Of a stretch of 59,783 nt of DNA, positions 16,601-35,508 are shown piece after piece. Origin of the DNA: Perkinsus olseni (taxonomy: Eukaryota); NCBI GenBank assembly GCA_013115125.1, contig JABANN010000024.1, forward strand, positions 62,001-121,783. The letters run 5' to 3'. The number at the start of each line of letters is the position of its first letter. The first letter of the stretch is position 1. A model generated the notes under the pieces. That model ran no database searches and was not told the origin of the DNA. It saw only the letters and a program-made list of their open reading frames with translations. The translations under genes were made by a program, and so were the position numbers.

Positions 16601-18120
16601 ATGGGAATCTTGAGAGTAGATGATGAACATCAGGACAACATTCGTGACGGCGAGGATTGCTGGCATCCGACTACACGCCTGATGGCCGATCAGTCGTCAG
16701 GACTAACCTAGTCCTGGCCGTAGTCGTAGGAACGATCGTGCATCAACATGACGAATCTACTCGATAGCGAGACGAGCACATCATAACTTCTCCGATACGA
16801 TTTTCAGAAATGTAGTCTCAATAAATAAGTATACTGGAGACATCTCAATACGATGGTGTTTGTCCTACAGCCCAACTTTCAGAGACACTTTCAAAATTCC
16901 GGCAACTGGATAGTATCCAGTGGATACGCGTTCGTGGCAGGACAGGTGAAATGGTCAAGGCATCCTGCCAGCGCAGCTTGACCCCTCTGGAAAGTACTCC
17001 AGCAACTTGTATGGCCCCTGGTGCTCCTGGTGGACGAATGCTGCCTAGATTTACCGGAGACGACAAAAGCAGGTATTTAGGTTTCGCGCTCGCCCGCTAA
17101 AGATTAAAATTACACTCTATATATCAACGGTCGTTTAGCTCAGTCGGTTAGAGCATCGTGCTAATAACGCGAGGGTCGCAGGTTCGAGCCCTGCATCGAC
17201 CATTTAGCCCAACAACACTATCTTATTGGCAGCGTTGGGTTGCATGGCTTTTCTCTGTATGCTTTGCTTGCCTCCTGCACGTCACTCTGACTGGGCGTGC
17301 GAAGGGACCTCGAAGTCAGGAAGATGAGACGCCTAGTGAATAAGTTTTAGGGATTCGGGGGAATGCGCCGAAGGTTCAGATGCTCCCTGAATTGTTCAGT
17401 GTTAAAAGCAGCAAGCACTTCGCTCATTTCAAGAGACCTACAACCCACTCCGCCAGTGAAGAAATTCCGCCCTGTGCCACAGGCCCCGTGGCGAGGCTCT
17501 CACTCAGAGCCGCTTAAGGCAATGAGGAGTTCCAACAAGAGCCACACGATTCGACTGAGGCCTGCGATGCTACATTTCTCCTCGCTGCGCTCCATACGCG
17601 GGGGCGAGCAACGGCAGCAGAGAGAGTGTGTGTGAGTTTAAAGTCCAATGCCGACAGTACTGCACAGCAGAGAGTATGGCGCTACTCACCAGAGTCACGG
17701 CTGCCTTCTTCAACTTCTCAGCTTTTTGATCTGATACGCCTCTCAAGCTACTTAGATGTCGAATGGGTGCGAAAGCCAATGCTTCGACTGTACCTAGTCC
17801 CATCGACAGTCATCCACAACGGAGGACGGCAGATCTTGTTCACCGGACACCCAGATGGTCCGAGCACATCGCAGTAGTCCTCCCAGCAGATGGACGTTAC
17901 CTATCCCCTGATCGATCAGTTTTTGGATATCTGCGGTCGTCAAGCCAGCTCCACCATCTTTCTCCGGCGCTCGCAAGCGATCCAGCAACATAGGGCCTAT
18001 GTGATGCACCGAAAACAGTGCCAAACGCTCGTCCTCAGTACGCAGTCTCACCATCGCACGCTCCTACGTCCGCGTCCATCTCGCCCTGCTCCCTCTCCTT
18101 CACAGCCTCATCGTTGCGAG
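13689..18120 (-). CDS. RAD51: RAD51 recombinase, multi-exon. 5' start uncertain and may extend to about 18.7 kb.
   Basis: HhH exons ([27 protein letters not shown]); [51 protein letters not shown] (Rad51-type rather than DMC1-type); [42 protein letters not shown]; last exon [17 protein letters not shown]...FK* with stop at 13689. Confidence 0.9.
17129..17202 (+). tRNA. tRNA-Ile, anticodon AAT
   Basis: GGTCGTT TAGCTCAGTCGGTTAGAGC A TCGTG-CT AAT AA-CGCGA GGGTC GCAGG TTCGAGC CCTGC ATCGACC A: cloverleaf with intact A and B boxes. A TATATAT stretch lies just upstream. Confidence 0.96.
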
Positions 18121-29526: not shown

Positions 29527-30906
29527 TCAAAGGCTGATAACAGGCCGCGTTATAATCCGTGATTCCACACTATGTGCCAGAGAATACCGATGGCCGCTCG
29601 GGGAGAAGTCGCAAGTAGTGAGCGTGACAGTTGGGGATATCTCCCCCACTCCATTGTAGGCATCCGAACTACCATCCATGCCAAACTCCCTCATCTCCCT
29701 GGCCAAGCGTTTGCTCCTTCTCCGTAACAGGAATATCACGTTACCGACCAGTCCTACTATCAGGACGCTTGTTACAGTCCATCTTGAGATCATCGTCCAC
29801 ATAGACCAGCTAACGAGCCATTCTACTACCTCACAGCGACTAAGGCACCAGCCATTATTCGCGCCTTCCGGTACCTCCTCTCCCTCTGAAATGTGCTCTG
29901 CGTATTCTATACAGTCGTCGAAGCTCATGAACACAACCTTCCTGTCCTCTGCCGCCCGCATTTGCATCTTCTCTTCTATCGACTCATCATCGCAGTAAAT
30001 CTGGCCTAACTTCGGGCGTGTAGAAACATCTTCCGCCATTTCTTCTTCCGTCCCATCATCCATCTCGCCATCTCCCATCTCCCCCTCACTCGGCCCACTG
30101 CCGTTACCCGAGTCATCCTGCATATCGCCACTGTCGTCCCGGCCCTCTGTCATCCCTGGCTGCTCTGTAGCAGCCTCCGTAGTATCGCCCACCATTCCTT
30201 GCTCTCTATCGCCGTCATCACCTCCACCCGGGGCCATTGTTCGATCCATGCCATCCACACCTGTCGTAGGGCCCATATTACCATCATCCATCCCACTTCC
30301 ACCAGGCGGGTCCATGCTGTCCATGGACTGCTCAATAGAAGTCCTCCGACGTATGCTCGGCGGCCACCCCTCTACTCTCAACCCATCAGGTGGCAACAAC
30401 AGCTGTCGGCGGCGGCCCATCCCCGACCCGCCCAGCAGCTCTTCGCACCCCTCTGCAGTGGGATCATCACACAGCATAGCCCCACTGCACCCTCCTTGAT
30501 ACCACAATCCCACGTACCCGGCCCAGATGCTATAATAAAGGCCCCGACTGGCCAAGGGAATCCCGTCATTCGAGAGCAGTTCCTTCTGTAGGCCAGCATA
30601 GACAGTATACCAGTAGGTGTAGGTCCCTGCTGATATCGAGAACAGCGCTATTAGAACAAGGAAAAGAAGCAGGAAAGATGACACCATCCAGGGATTGAAC
30701 CCGCGCCTCTGTATACAATAGCCGAAGATCCCCAGCACTATCAGTAGTATACCGGATACTAGCAACACTACCGAGGCCCATATCGGCGTCATGTGTATCG
30801 AGTAGGAGAGCTGTTGGACTGAGTTGGCGATGATAATACAGCCCATAACTACCGGTATAATATTGAGGAAGATGTGGACTGCGCTCCAGCCTCGTCGACA
30901 TTTCAT
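29527..30906 (-). CDS. Tetraspanin-like four-TM protein with an acidic Gly/Met-rich insert in the large loop
   Basis: Three N-terminal hydrophobic segments, a Cys-containing large loop (GGCSGAMLCDD, YCDD, WCLSRC) and one C-terminal TM. Single exon; start taken at MKCRR. Confidence 0.7.
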   Translation of the reverse strand: MKCRRGWSAVHIFLNIIPVVMGCIIIANSVQQLSYSIHMTPIWASVVLLVSGILLIVLGIFGYCIQRRGFNPWMVSSFLLLFLVLIALFSISAGTYTYWYTVYAGLQKELLSNDGIPLASRGLYYSIWAGYVGLWYQGGCSGAMLCDDPTAEGCEELLGGSGMGRRRQLLLPPDGLRVEGWPPSIRRRTSIEQSMDSMDPPGGSGMDDGNMGPTTGVDGMDRTMAPGGGDDGDREQGMVGDTTEAATEQPGMTEGRDDSGDMQDDSGNGSGPSEGEMGDGEMDDGTEEEMAEDVSTRPKLGQIYCDDESIEEKMQMRAAEDRKVVFMSFDDCIEYAEHISEGEEVPEGANNGWCLSRCEVVEWLVSWSMWTMISRWTVTSVLIVGLVGNVIFLLRRRSKRLAREMREFGMDGSSDAYNGVGEISPTVTLTTCDFSPSGHRYSLAHSVESRIITRPVISL

Positions 30907-31719
30907 AGTGAGGAGGAGACACAACTGCCGACGCCCAACCAAAGCTCTACTCGAAGGGCACATCCTGTGTCGAGGAAAGCTGCAGCTGTATGAAAAAAGT
31001 CCGATTATGCCTCAAGCACACATCGCACTATAATCACAAGAGCAGTCAGAGTAATGGCTGGAACCTCACGCTGGGTATGAACTCAGTACCATCCATTTTG
31101 CCCGCCCTGACCGATAATACCACCGCCCGATCGATATATTGATAACACCGAGCCTCATTACGAGCCTCAATCTACCTCTGTTGCATCAGATACACACAGT
31201 GAAAAAAGGCTAGGTAACCTCGCAAGTACTACCGCGTTCTCTGTTTGGGGGTACTGGAGAGGAGCTCATTCGGGGGGCGACTGCATAAACCCTTGGCGAT
31301 GGCCACCATAGGAATTCGGCCGAGCGCAGAAATTCACAAAAGGCGCTGCTGCAACATTCGCATCGGAATGTGAGCCGCCCACACTGCAGGAAGCATGCGG
31401 CAGTCGGCGAATGTATGCCTAATTAGTTTTCACAGGATAGTACTGTTCATAATAGGGACAGGAGAGAAGACGATTAGATTTCTATAACAAGCGCTGTTGC
31501 GCTCACTCAGACGATAGAATAAGGACTACACTTCTACTACGCGATGACGTTCACAATGGCTGAGTAGCAGTAACTAGTGCAACAACAAGAATAACAAAAT
31601 GCCATCTCACGCTTGTGTCTTCCACCAGCAAGACGACGACCCCGTGTGAAGGCGGGATGGCACTTAGAAGTGTACAGGAAGTAACAACATGAGCTTACTG
31701 TAGTTCTGCAGGAAGACCA

Positions 31720-31796: not shown

Positions 31797-32708
31797 TTAA
31801 ACCTTCACAATAGATTCTTCGGTCGATGGTGGCAGGGGGTTTCTCAGCCACCAATTGGAGCCTGAAACTGTCCGACTGATGTAGACAATCTCTTGATGCT
31901 CTTCCATGATGACCTTTCGACGATTCAGAAGATACATCGCGTTCAGAGCAACCGCTGCCAGCATGACAACAGTGAGGGCCCACATCAACAGCATGTTGTA
32001 AAAGTTCCAATTCTGAGTTCGATACAAGAGCGTATCCAAACTTGCACACCACGAGTTTATTTGCCCTTCACTCGCAGAAGGCTCCGTCAACCTAGTAGAG
32101 TTCTTGCACTCCCAGAAATAAGGCTGTCTTGCGCTCTTGGACTCATGCTCAACTCCCTCCTGCCAACGCGTGAACGCCGCTCCCAGACTACTTTCACCTT
32201 CACAGACCACTTCAGTCAACTTCACAGGATCTTCAAGGCATTTGCCATCATCTTCACATTCCCCACCCTCACACGTCCCCCACATCTCAAAAAAAGTGCC
32301 TCTCATCTTCACAACGCTCCCTCGCTGACCAGGCGTCCACTCTTCTGGAGCGTAATGATCTTGGTGACCGACTTCGGAGTGAATGCTCACCCAGTCCACG
32401 TACCCAATAGTCGCCGAAATAGCTCCACTAACGTAAAGCGCCAACAACACCATACAAACGGTGAAGAAGGACCAGATGAGACACCAGCTGCTGCTGCGCT
32501 TGGTTGCAACACACGCCAGAACAGCGAGCAACGTCATCATAACACCCGAGAAAAGTACGACAAGAATTCGCCATCTCTCAACTAACTCCGCCATGTGGCT
32601 GGAAAGTAGGAAAAAACCGTAGCCCACCATGACCATCCCGAAACAGCATGGTATCAGATTAAGCGACCAGATCAACGACCTGCCGTGGGGAGTAGTGCAA
32701 ATGGTCAT
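31797..32708 (-). CDS. Tetraspanin-like four-TM protein, paralog of the 29.5-30.9 kb gene
   Basis: Same 3TM + Cys loop (CEGGECEDDGKC, VVCE, WEC, NSWC) + TM layout, with shared LNxIP and NxWC motifs. Start taken at MTICTT. Confidence 0.7.
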   Translation of the reverse strand: MTICTTPHGRSLIWSLNLIPCCFGMVMVGYGFFLLSSHMAELVERWRILVVLFSGVMMTLLAVLACVATKRSSSWCLIWSFFTVCMVLLALYVSGAISATIGYVDWVSIHSEVGHQDHYAPEEWTPGQRGSVVKMRGTFFEMWGTCEGGECEDDGKCLEDPVKLTEVVCEGESSLGAAFTRWQEGVEHESKSARQPYFWECKNSTRLTEPSASEGQINSWCASLDTLLYRTQNWNFYNMLLMWALTVVMLAAVALNAMYLLNRRKVIMEEHQEIVYISRTVSGSNWWLRNPLPPSTEESIVKV

Positions 32709-33159
32709 AAACCAAAGTGGGCTGTCAGGAACGTTCTTACGATGATCAATCTTAATTTCTTGGCGCGTGACAAGAAGCAACAGACTTAGCGCTTCAGGCG
32801 AGGATTCGATTACCTTTTGTCAACTCGGAACTAACACAACACAAGGCACCGCCGACAAAAGATACACAGATAACTGAGAAGTCACCCGCTACAATTTGTC
32901 AGTGAGGCCCCGTGAAAGGAGCAGCCTGCTCCGAGCAGGATGGCCGACAATCACCCCCGCCTCAAGGGGTAAGATAACATGGTATTATGAACTTATGAGC
33001 GCTTAGCGATCGAAGTATAGCTCTTCGATGAGGTCCTCACCGCATAATGATGTGGGTGAAAGTTTTTAGCCCAATGCCAGAACCAGCTTAGTTCGGTAAG
33101 AGTCTTCAAGGGATCCAATCATTTCCTGACTATGACATGCACTGCCAAAAAGCTACGCT

Positions 33160-33985
33160 AGCGTCTATTCAGACTGAGAAGCTTCCTTGGCGTTAGCAAT
33201 GAGGGATCATCCGCTGATCAACTTTAATGGGGCCCTCAGAGAGAAGATTACAAGTCAGCGGCACGCCATTGTCGACAGAGCCTCAGAATCCGATGAAGCG
33301 GAACGACTTCAATTGCACATCACTGGGGGCATTCCATTCACCTCATCATAAAGACTAATCGAAAGGTTGTTCATTCACAGACAGCCGCCAAGGGCGTCTC
33401 GCATAAAGCAGGTGAAATCATCGAGGACTGACATTCTTCGCTACTTGGATAGGTTACTCAGCGAGCGCTTCAGCGCCGCAGCCGTTTCAAAATAGCTTTG
33501 TGTTCGAAACTTTGAGATTCTCGGGAACAGCGCACTCTCGAGAGCCAGGCTGATATCTTCTTGGTTGAACACAGTTGAGCCACTCGTGAACCAATTCCCT
33601 AACCGGAATCGGATACTTCAAAGGCTAGACTACCTCCGGCATGTTCACACTCTCCACCTAGCAGACAGCTTGGGAAACCAGCGCAGAGATCATTGGTGTG
33701 CAAGTGGTAGCAGACACTCTGCCAACTATGTACGTGAATAATCAGGGCCAGCGCGGAAACCAGAATGAAATGTACGCTCACCTTAACGGGACTGAACCCG
33801 TGATACCTGTGAAGAGTACTCGCGAGGACGTTAGAATCCTCGGTCACGCAGTAAAGTGAGAATCCAACATCGTAACTAGCAGTTACTAACGACTCGACCG
33901 TGTCGGACATAAAAGCGTCGAAAAGAGCACACGTCACGTCACAATCCTCGATTCGTAAGGCACCCCGGACGGTTGCGACACGCAT
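33160..33985 (-). CDS. Hypothetical multi-exon gene, possible host of snoRNA copy 1
   Basis: ATG-initiated ORF 33985-33599 with an internal GTGAGC donor, and downstream GT-AG pairs flanking the snoRNA. No recognisable domain. Confidence 0.35.
33232..33330 (-). ncRNA. Box C/D snoRNA, mgU6-47/SNORD7-like, copy 1
   Basis: Minus strand: GCCCCCA-GTGATGT(box C)...CTTCATCGGATT-CTGA(D')...GACTTGTAATCTTCTCT-CTGA(D)-GGGC, with a terminal stem. The guide TAATCTTCTCT is complementary to U6 AGAGAAGAUUA. It lies in a putative GTGAAT..GCTAAC..CTCAG intron (~33174-33341). Confidence 0.85.
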
Positions 33986-34327
33986 GACATAATAGCGTGG
34001 CCTCTAAAGCATCTTGAATCCTCATAAATAAGTCGCAAAAAAGCTATTACGCTCAAACTACTCCCACCAAATTTGTGATTCGTCTCCGGAGGATAGACGA
34101 GGCAAGGCGAACTGATCCTTGTCCATCTTCCCTAGACTCAATTGGCCAATGTGCCTTCCCAACTCCATCAACCCATCATCAACTCAAGAGAATGAAACTA
34201 ATCTGTATCAGATGTAGCATAGGTATGCTTACTGAACGGCGAGCGGGTCTCTTGAGAAGAAGAATCAATGCATCAGCCGCTCAGTAATGAATGGTAGTGG
34301 TGCTGGTGGAAGTCATCAACTTTCCGT

Positions 34328-35250
34328 TTACAACTTCTCCATGATGTTGGAGGACCTCGAGCACGAGAGACCAGTTCCATCAGGTTCGACCTCGAGATCA
34401 GTGATCTTGCCGTTGTCGATGATAGCGGCGAACCTCTTGGTACGAATGGGTCCGAGGACACCACTGGCATCGAAATCAGTGCCGAGAGCCTGAGAGGGAT
34501 GCATCATCAGCACAGCACAACAGCAGAGGCCACCCGCCGACACTCTGTTGAGACCGTGACCCTCTATTTTTACCTTGGCAGCATCGCCATCGACATCAGA
34601 GAGCATGCGAACCTTTCCATCAGCGCCCTTGATCTTTCCCCAAGCTTGCATCACGAAGGCATCATTGACGGCCATGCAGGCAACAGTCTTCACACCCTTC
34701 TGTTGGAGCTTGTCGTAATCACGAATGAATCTAAAGAAAAACGACCATTAAACAACGCAAACAGATGAACTCCAAAGCCATTCAAGCCAACGGCGATTGC
34801 TACTCTCAGAGAGAAGATTACAAGTCACGAGCATCCATTGTCGGTGCTGCTGCTTCAGAATCCGATGAAGTAGAACGAGTTTATCACTTTAACATCACAG
34901 AATAGCACCAACCACTTAAACCCCATTCAACCTTCCCACGGACAACGTACCCAGGCAAATGAGACTGATCGCAGGTTGGGGTGAAGGCACCGGGGACGCC
35001 GAAGAGAATACCCTTATCTTTGCCGAAAATGTCGCGAAGCGACTTTTTGTCACCTGAACAGAATTAACGCATAACCAGAGCCAGATTTTCACCCAGGCTC
35101 GCTGTACTTACCAGGGTCAGCCTCTCTAACAGCCACATCGGGCAAAGCATCACCGACAGCAACAGAGAAGCACCTAGCGGCCATCATACGGCTAGCGGGT
35201 GCTGCTGCGAGAGCAGCGGGAGCGAATCCAGTAGCAACACGAGAAAGCAT
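34328..35250 (-). CDS. PRDX5: Peroxiredoxin-5 (type II Prx) with a probable mitochondrial presequence, 4 exons
   Basis: [29 protein letters not shown] presequence; [18 protein letters not shown] active site; [42 protein letters not shown]. Confidence 0.93.
34801..34904 (-). ncRNA. Box C/D snoRNA, mgU6-47/SNORD7-like, copy 2, inside PRDX5 intron 34731-34950
   Basis: TATTCT-GTGATGT...CTTCATCGGATT-CTGA...GACTTGTAATCTTCTCT-CTGA-GAGTA. Boxes and guides are identical to copy 1, while the spacers and terminal stem (TATTC/GAGTA) differ. Confidence 0.88.
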
Positions 35251-35508
35251 ATTCGAATGAACTAATGAAAAAACCTGAAAAAGTAAATTCTTGAATGGCA
35301 TGCCTTGATGATGAACTGCCACTGATCACGACCAGCAGCACCGCAGCTTTCGCTGCGCCCTAGCGATCGACGGGACGGCGAAGATGCGAATCTTTTGTGT
35401 GCGGGAAGCTTGCGATGGGCTGTCGCTTACTCCATCGTGTGGGGCGCATCCCCGAATGCACAACATTCTCAACTACGTTGTTAACGCGACAGCGACTCGC
35501 GAGAAACG

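Follow-up and report, generated by a model that had tools for sequence, protein, structure and literature searches.

Two copies of a probable box C/D snoRNA gene of the U6 A47 guide type in Perkinsus, one in a PRDX5-like intron and one in an unspliced transcript

We describe here two minus-strand elements, copy A (34798-34907) and copy B (33226-33338), which lie 1.57 kb apart and are probably genes for one and the same box C/D snoRNA, a guide of the mgU6-47/SNORD7/snoZ30 type predicted to direct methylation of the catalytic core of the spliceosomal RNA U6. They were examined within a window of 59.8 kb, by which we mean the whole stretch of DNA that was analyzed. Boxes and guide sequences are identical between the copies, and the surrounding sequence has diverged. 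RNA contigs place copy A in a spliced intron and copy B in an unspliced, apparently noncoding transcript.

Conservation and architecture of the paired elements

A box C/D snoRNA is a stable RNA of ~70-120 nt bound by fibrillarin, Nop56, Nop58, and Snu13. Both elements have the arrangement of box C, box D, and terminal stem of this class. In each, box C reads GUGAUGU and CUGA occurs internally as D' and terminally as D, and the two antisense elements are shared as well. The parts of the two predicted snoRNAs are as follows.

34798..34907, minus strand: predicted snoRNA copy A including the terminal stem (34900-34907 with 34798-34805); sequence, predicted fold, repeats
34892..34898, minus strand: copy A box C, GUGAUGU, one departure from RUGAUGA; sequence
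34859..34878, minus strand: copy A D'-side antisense element, 20 nt, of which the 12 nt beside D' (34859-34870) recur unchanged in copy B; sequence, repeat comparison
34855..34858, minus strand: copy A box D', CUGA; sequence, repeat comparison
34822..34827, minus strand: copy A candidate degenerate box C', UGACUU, 12 nt before box D; putative assignment
34810..34820, minus strand: copy A D guide UAAUCUUCUCU, complement of U6 AGAGAAGAUUA; motif search, Rfam U6 consensus
34806..34809, minus strand: copy A box D, CUGA; sequence, Rfam alignment
33226..33338, minus strand: predicted snoRNA copy B including a two-part terminal stem, core 33232-33330; sequence, Rfam alignment, predicted fold, repeats
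33317..33323, minus strand: copy B box C, GUGAUGU; sequence
33287..33306, minus strand: copy B D'-side antisense element; sequence, repeat comparison
33283..33286, minus strand: copy B box D'; sequence, repeat comparison
33252..33257, minus strand: copy B candidate box C', UGACUU; sequence, repeat comparison
33240..33250, minus strand: copy B D guide; motif search, Rfam alignment
33236..33239, minus strand: copy B box D; sequence, Rfam alignment

A repeat search of the window recovered the pair as an exact 23-nt repeat (33235-33257 and 34805-34827) and a 30-nt repeat of 87% identity (33280-33309 and 34852-34881), with a spacing of 1570-1572 nt. Between copies A and B, boxes C (7/7), D' (4/4), and D (4/4) are unchanged; identity is 24/33 in the stretch from C to D' and 36/45 in that from D' to D, and the 60-nt flanks agree at 32/60 and 31/60 positions and are unrelated. 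Taken together, the boxes, the 12-nt D' guide, and the 18-nt block of C' and D guide are identical at 45/45 positions compared with 30/48 of the other internal positions (Fisher p = 1.2e-6). This is the conservation pattern of a functional RNA. It confirms the claim of the earlier note that two minus-strand elements 1.57 kb apart keep their boxes and guides while the spacers diverge, and that each has a terminal stem of its own: in the predicted folds, this stem comprises ~8 bp in copy A and, in copy B, 4 bp (33327-33330 with 33232-33235) followed by a further 5 bp (33334-33338 with 33226-33230). The whole predicted folds of the two copies are no more stable than those of shuffled sequences (z -0.06 and -0.65).

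The 11-mer of the D guide, TAATCTTCTCT, has two exact matches in the 59.8-kb window, at 33240-33250 and 34810-34820. When one mismatch was allowed, there were four matches (two of them with one mismatch) against 0.87 expected by chance; four were reached in 1/100 shuffles, and CTGA follows neither of the one-mismatch sites. Box D' is a perfect CUGA in both copies, and the sole conserved candidate for box C' is the degenerate UGACUU, at a distance of 12 nt from box D on its 5' side. Box C/D snoRNAs with a degenerate C' have been described (PMC3116282, in part). A crude box C/D scan of the window gave five candidates; a stem of >5 bp was found in copy A alone, and copy B was missed. Three of the other candidates lie in or around the PRDX5 coding sequence or other ORFs and were rejected.

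Searched at the Rfam gathering thresholds, the window contains no snoRNA family. Below these thresholds, the snoZ30 model (RF00288) aligned over its full length with copy B only (16.5 bits versus a gathering score of 50, E 7.7), and the snoU6-47 model (RF01221) matched a local stretch of 15 nt in copy A (15.5 bits versus 54). This stretch, UAAUCUUCUCUCUGA, consists of guide and box D; it matches the snoU6-47 consensus at 15/15 positions and also equals the corresponding stretch of the snoZ30 consensus. The earlier note had pointed to Rfam for this comparison, and the outcome is divided: guide and box D are identical to those of the U6-47 families, but the whole-model scores fall far below threshold. 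Based on this 15/15 identity and the subthreshold scores, the two elements would act like mgU6-47 by their guide, yet they stand outside both Rfam families by score. A match to SNORD70 in exon 3 of PRDX5 (20.9 versus 50 bits) was dismissed as weak.

Predicted U6 contacts of the two antisense elements

Located directly before CUGA, the D guide is complementary to U6 AGAGAAGAUUA. By direct count, the fifth pair from box D falls on the fifth letter of AGAGAAGAUUA, the A that closes ACAGAGA. In the Rfam U6 consensus, on which the motif used to collect U6 genes had no bearing, the sequence is AUACAGAGAAGAUUAGC. When prokaryotic genome contigs were searched for two motifs complementary to the guide and separated by 3 nt, 29 loci were returned, 13 of which are eukaryotic U6 genes in bacterial assemblies, and all 13 pass the Rfam U6 gathering score. 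AGAGAAGAUUA is present in 13/13 of these genes, which were picked by that motif, whereas the Rfam consensus was not. At gathering thresholds, Rfam detected no U6 gene in the window, and the available text of PMC3706591 and PMC7789003 yielded no Perkinsus U6 sequence; the target assignments of both antisense elements are read from the U6 of other organisms, not from that of Perkinsus. Two further claims of the earlier note are borne out by this comparison, namely that the D guide pairs with U6, its complement being present in the Rfam consensus and in the 13 U6 genes, and that the fifth-nucleotide rule selects the last A of ACAGAGA, human A47, the target of mgU6-47 (PMC5855946, in part).

According to the accessible parts of the respective papers, human U6 A47 is 2'-O-methylated under the guidance of mgU6-47 (PMC5855946), methylation of Schizosaccharomyces pombe U6 A41 is lost upon deletion of snoZ30 (PMC10484740), and guides of the U6 A47 type have thus been described for human, S. 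pombe, and Neurospora crassa (PMC5855946, PMC10484740, and PMC2780460). By analogy, the RNA encoded by copies A and B would form a particle with the usual set of box C/D proteins and pair with U6 AGAGAAGAUUA through the 11-nt antisense element at its box D, and fibrillarin would 2'-O-methylate the U6 nucleotide opposite guide position 5, the last A of ACAGAGA. The RNAduplex energy of the D-side region with U6 was equaled by 149-309 of 500 shuffles, the D guide being an AU-rich 11-mer; such comparisons with shuffles discriminate poorly, and even the D guide is not set apart by them.

The D' element of 20 nt is identical in copies A and B at positions 1-12 and 15-20, and its only differences are at positions 13 (A/G) and 14 (U/C). 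The outer block, guide positions 13-20, is complementary to the U6 consensus UGGAACGA, which ends 3 nt before the target of the D guide, and all of the letters at the two variable positions are able to pair with the U and G of U6. Three U6 genes (L077, L097, and L098) have AUCCGAU immediately after the 5' stem-loop, and guide positions 2-8 are complementary to it. These genes share a contig with two dinoflagellate spliced-leader RNA genes and are thus from a dinoflagellate. A second U6 adjoining a dinoflagellate leader gene, L085, has AUCCGUU in place of AUCCGAU. In the L077 U6, the two blocks paired with the D' element are separated by a loop of 4 nt versus 5 nt. In a simulation with eight U6 upstream regions, a pair of colinear blocks of this kind in any one of them was obtained with 131 of 2,000,000 random 21-mers; the two-block criteria were set after the match had been seen, and the real guides pass with the L077 type only, one of the eight U6 types. 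The RNAduplex energy of the D' region with U6 was matched by 17/500 shuffles at best, mildly better than shuffles.

Other targets of the D' element were sought as well. Among metagenome contigs, the complement of the 20-nt element, with two positions left free, occurs at 44 loci with unrelated, bacterial-looking flanks and without a downstream ACAGAGA, which is chance level. Among viral contigs, the two U6-complementary motifs with a gap of 0-10 nt occur at 26 loci, none of which has the 3-nt gap of U6, again as expected by chance. A full-text literature search with the 12-nt D' target or guide produced nothing relevant as judged by title. We know of no convincing D' target in 5.8S, 18S, or 28S rRNA, in other snRNAs, or in spliced-leader RNA.

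On balance, we lean slightly toward the view that the D' element binds U6, between the 5' stem-loop and ACAGAGA. The element could then guide a methylation in its own right, at the second C of an AAUCC motif, which lies opposite its fifth position, or it could provide extra base-pairing that strengthens the weak, AU-rich duplex of the D guide. A more far-reaching proposal is that of a dual U6 guide with a lineage-specific, D'-directed 2'-O-methylation of the C just 3' of the 5' stem-loop, combined with maturation of copy B from the body of a spliced-leader-capped noncoding RNA; we put this forward tentatively, as possible but doubtful. If both elements are read as U6 guides, they jointly cover ~31 of 34 U6 nucleotides from the edge of the 5' stem-loop through ACAGAGA. 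The accessible part of PMC5855946 lists for human U6 no ribose methylation in the region immediately following the 5' stem-loop, and that of PMC10484740 describes A41 of S. pombe U6 as the sole ribose methylation outside of the internal stem-loop.

Two alternatives bear on these assignments. It is conceivable that the D' element guides another RNA, such as an rRNA, another snRNA, or a tRNA, and that its likeness to U6 is due to chance, and double guides with both snRNA and rRNA targets are indeed known, as exemplified by N. crassa CD11 and CD29 (PMC2780460, in part). The restriction of both blocks to one of eight U6 types, read in other organisms, fits this possibility. Against it stand the placement of the two colinear blocks directly upstream of the D-guide target in the same RNA, rarely reproduced by random guides, and the 44 metagenome loci, whose unrelated flanks do not belong to any conserved RNA and make a widely conserved 20-nt rRNA site unlikely. 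We therefore consider a different D' target a minority possibility, and U6 remains our slightly favored target. The notion that the repeats are not snoRNAs at all but a short dispersed repeat or a regulatory motif appears very improbable to us. The RNA contigs contain no small RNA from either copy, and no Rfam family exceeds its threshold, as this notion would have it; yet it does not account for the complete order of boxes, their spacing, the terminal stems and the conservation pattern, for the 15-nt identity of guide and box D to two curated U6-47 snoRNA families, or for a copy number of only two in 59.8 kb. Genes for a U6-directed box C/D snoRNA are the better reading.

Transcripts of the locus and the spliced leader

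Contigs assembled from four public RNA runs (X1, X2, X10, and X19) were aligned over 32600-35400. Together with the sequence, they delineate the following features, which include three successive minus-strand units: a PRDX5-like mRNA, the transcript with copy B, and a tetraspanin-like gene.

34190..35276, minus strand: PRDX5-like (Redoxin) mRNA, extent as in RNA contigs, 4 exons, 186-aa product; RNA contigs, Pfam
34731..34950, minus strand: host intron 2 of the PRDX5-like gene, 220 nt, GT..AG; joint in 4/4 RNA runs
34044..34045, minus strand: probable spliced-leader acceptor AG of the copy B transcript; loose end in 1/4 runs, four non-templated letters
32851..34045, minus strand: unspliced, apparently noncoding transcript with copy B, 5' end probable and 3' end uncertain; RNA contigs
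32722..32723, minus strand: spliced-leader acceptor AG of the tetraspanin-like gene; loose ends in 2/4 runs, leader sequence from PMC3101222 (in part)
31797..32708, minus strand: next coding gene, tetraspanin-like ORF; ORF, Pfam

The joints 35051/35110, 34730/34951, and 34488/34573 are present in all four runs. The second of these removes intron 2, which encloses copy A, so that copy A resides in a real intron of 220 nt. The spliced product has 186 aa, and the reading of exons 3-4 matches Pfam Redoxin (1.3e-15). Placement of one copy in PRDX5 intron 2, as given in the earlier note, is thus upheld by both the joint and the Redoxin match. At the 5' side, contigs of two runs end at an AG at 35276. 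The distance to the 3' splice site is 75 nt from the end of box D of copy A and 68 nt from the end of its stem. In 2001, Hirose and Steitz reportedly found that the optimum position of mammalian box C/D snoRNAs is ~70-80 nt upstream of the 3' splice site, and the distances in copy A fit this optimum, a mammalian rule that may not apply in perkinsids. Among the assembled contigs of the four runs, there was no excised copy A snoRNA or mature RNA of ~100 nt, and all contigs join across intron 2. Copy A would be freed from intron 2 by splicing and then trimmed.

The situation of copy B differs from what had been proposed. The earlier note placed it in an intron of the next gene, at ~33174-33341, to be examined by RNA-seq, and suggested a duplication from intron to intron. 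In the RNA contigs, a joint at this position was found in 0/4 runs. Contigs of X1 (32694-34045) and X19 (32851-34163) run unspliced through both ends of 33174-33341, and a contig of X2 (32945-33318) crosses the proposed acceptor only, also unspliced; X10 covers 32881-33186 only, 31 letters short of bridging the acceptor, and is uninformative. Contig depth in the copy B region was 280 in X1 and 10 in X19, and cover of PRDX5 intron 2 in the same runs was zero, so that DNA contamination does not account for the copy B cover. At 32722-32723, ~500 nt downstream of copy B, the tetraspanin-like gene (Pfam, 4.3e-8) has a spliced-leader acceptor of its own. Because there is no joint, the contigs bridge the region unspliced, and the tetraspanin-like mRNA starts downstream of copy B, the proposed intron and with it the intron-to-intron duplication are unsupported.

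The transcript with copy B, situated between the PRDX5-like and tetraspanin-like genes, starts at ~34043; its contigs end at 32851 and 32881, and one extends to 32694. It contains several short upstream ORFs, and its longest ORF encodes 128 aa (33602-33985). This ORF matches no Pfam family, and a search of proteins with 70-224 residues gave no homologue; the transcript is therefore treated as apparently noncoding. Release of copy B from this unspliced transcript would require cutting or trimming.

Contig ends at this locus point to trans-splicing with a spliced leader of the Perkinsus type. Loose contig ends at 32723 (X1 and X19) carry non-templated letters, the reverse complement of which is CTTGGCTCA, X19 being one letter longer. 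At 34045, a loose end in X1 only has four non-templated letters, CTCA, followed by Illumina adapter. Both positions are at genomic AG dinucleotides. Joined to the genomic AG at 32722-32723, CTTGGCTCA becomes CTTGGCTCAAG, identical to the last 11 nt of the L-type spliced leader of Perkinsus marinus and unlike both DinoSL and the S-type leader of Perkinsus, as these are given in the accessible part of PMC3101222. We conclude from this match that the organism trans-splices, and a Perkinsus species is its most likely identity. In the tetraspanin-like gene, the leader is added 13 nt before the ATG. The copy B transcript probably carries a spliced leader as well, a call based on the four letters at 34045 in one run. 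The earlier note had included neither the spliced-leader context nor the D' element as a likely complement of U6. Spliced-leader trans-splicing and most protein trees ally Perkinsus with dinoflagellates (PMC3101222, in part).

A case can be made that copy A alone is functional, copy B being a silent or degenerating duplicate that by chance lies in a transcribed spacer or a noncoding RNA: no run shows an intron around copy B, its box-proximal stem has only 4 bp, and the simple box C/D scan caught only copy A. We nevertheless regard this as unlikely, given that the boxes and both guides of copy B are intact (45/45) despite diverged spacers, that the two changes in the long D' element are wobble-compatible with a single target, and that copy B has an additional outer stem of 5 bp. 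The depth of 280 for the X1 contig compared with 77 for the neighboring mRNA, both rough values, points in the same direction. Improbable in our estimation is a real intron at 33174-33341 from which copy B would be released by splicing. GT and AG dinucleotides are present at the proposed ends, and assembled contigs can lose rare spliced forms, but the missing joint in four of four runs, the unspliced bridging of both ends by X1 and X19 and of the acceptor by X2, and the start of the tetraspanin-like mRNA at its own acceptor downstream of copy B all speak against it. Two genes in different transcript contexts, one intronic and one within an unspliced transcript, remain our preferred interpretation.

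Relation to known guides and biological meaning

Similar to mgU6-47/SNORD7 and snoZ30 (RF00288, which includes S. pombe), the D-box guide described here sets the last A of ACAGAGA at position 5. Guide and box D are shared with the snoZ30 consensus, but the remainder of the RNA is unrelated (16.5 bits versus 50), and the resemblance to snoU6-47 (RF01221) is likewise confined to the 15-nt stretch. By contrast with mgU6-47/SNORD7 and snoZ30, the RNA described here has another D' element, of considerable length (20 nt), and it is encoded by two copies in different transcript contexts, in what is likely a perkinsid. N. crassa CD11, too, is a box C/D RNA from an intron; U6-Am47 is a predicted target of it, and its authors called it partly similar to mgU6-47 (PMC2780460, in part). 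According to the same source, the D' element of CD11 serves U6 and 18S rRNA and its D element serves 26S rRNA; here, instead, it is box D that adjoins the U6 guide, and the other element seems to be directed at U6 too.

Conserved snoRNA complementarity beside a methylation site was reported by van Nues et al. in 2011 to stimulate methylation (PMC3116282, in part). The D' element described here resembles such extra base-pairing in its complementarity to a stretch adjoining the target of the D guide. The extra base-pairing snoRNAs of that work act on rRNA targets, however, whereas the target here would be U6, and the extra element lies directly at a perfect D' box and could itself guide methylation. 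In bearing a snoRNA within an apparently noncoding processed transcript, the copy B locus is comparable to host genes of the UHG/gas5 type. In those noncoding host genes the snoRNAs are intronic, unlike copy B, the transcript of which is unspliced around the snoRNA and appears to bear a spliced leader.

In conclusion, we report what is predicted to be a known kind of guide, that of the U6 A47 type, in the perkinsid lineage. Guides of this type are documented in animals and fungi. A search for literature containing both "Perkinsus" and "snoRNA" returned, as judged by title, none on Perkinsus snoRNAs, so that copies A and B would be among the first snoRNA genes described for this group. The identical guide in a perkinsid would extend the A47-type guide to the alveolates and would speak for an ancient origin of ACAGAGA-box methylation. 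The paired loci offer a natural experiment, with one guide located both in a spliced intron and in a probably trans-spliced noncoding RNA, through which the formation of snoRNAs in an organism with a spliced leader can be tested directly. Should the D' element indeed bind U6, this would be a case of extra base-pairing or of a second methylation on an snRNA target. If copy B does mature from the body of a spliced-leader-capped RNA, this would constitute an undescribed route of snoRNA formation in the lineage of dinoflagellates and perkinsids.

Box C near copy B and the D' side of snoZ30

Upstream of copy B, the minus-strand box C/D element at 33226-33338 predicted to guide U6 modification, lies an additional perfect box C motif:

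33343-33349, minus strand, AUGAUGA, 20 nt upstream of the box C that copy B shares with copy A (34798-34907)

This motif was rejected as the working box C of copy B because it has neither a counterpart in copy A nor adjacent terminal pairing.

On visual comparison, the Rfam consensus of snoZ30, a U6-47-type guide family, is complementary next to D' over 6 nt (UAUACU) to the animal-type U6 L073, in the U6 segment that immediately follows the 5' stem-loop. This snoZ30 match is at the same relative place as the putative D' match to U6 in copies A and B. The snoZ30 match may be due to chance.

U6 genes filed under bacterial genomes

Eukaryotic U6 genes accounted for 13 of the 29 pattern matches in the scan of prokaryotic genome contigs. 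The U6 genes L077, L097, and L098 share a single 14.8-kb contig with loci L104 and L105, in an assembly filed as a bacterial MAG. The U6 gene L085 groups with L106 and L109, likewise filed under a bacterial MAG. On MAG-filed contigs, tandem eukaryotic U6 genes are interspersed with dinoflagellate spliced-leader RNA genes, and contigs carrying both are eukaryotic contamination of the bins.

Neighboring genes and spliced-leader trans-splicing

The following features were annotated in the window:

17129-17202, plus strand, tRNA-Ile, anticodon AAU by alignment
29530-31011, minus strand, tetraspanin-like ORF (Pfam Tetraspanin, 9.1e-6, below the curated cutoff)
31800-32708, minus strand, tetraspanin-like ORF (Pfam Tetraspanin, 4.3e-8)
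32722-32723, minus strand, AG site in spliced-leader context
34044-34045, minus strand, AG site in spliced-leader context
35275-35276, minus strand, AG site in spliced-leader context

The tRNA-Ile is the sole Rfam match at gathering level in the whole window; tRNA-Ile genes of P. marinus are described as insertion sites of Dada transposons (PMC3706591). The two tetraspanin-like ORFs adjoin as a tandem pair.

At AG acceptors, minus-strand RNA contigs carry non-templated ends that agree with the 3'-terminal sequence of the L-type leader of Perkinsus. Trans-splicing by spliced leader probably operates on these minus-strand transcripts. Contigs of the PRDX5-like gene end at 34190-34254, with the next acceptor at 34045, and those of the unspliced middle transcript carrying copy B end at 32851-32881, with the next acceptor at 32723. 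Upstream transcripts appear to end ~130-160 nt ahead of the following acceptor.
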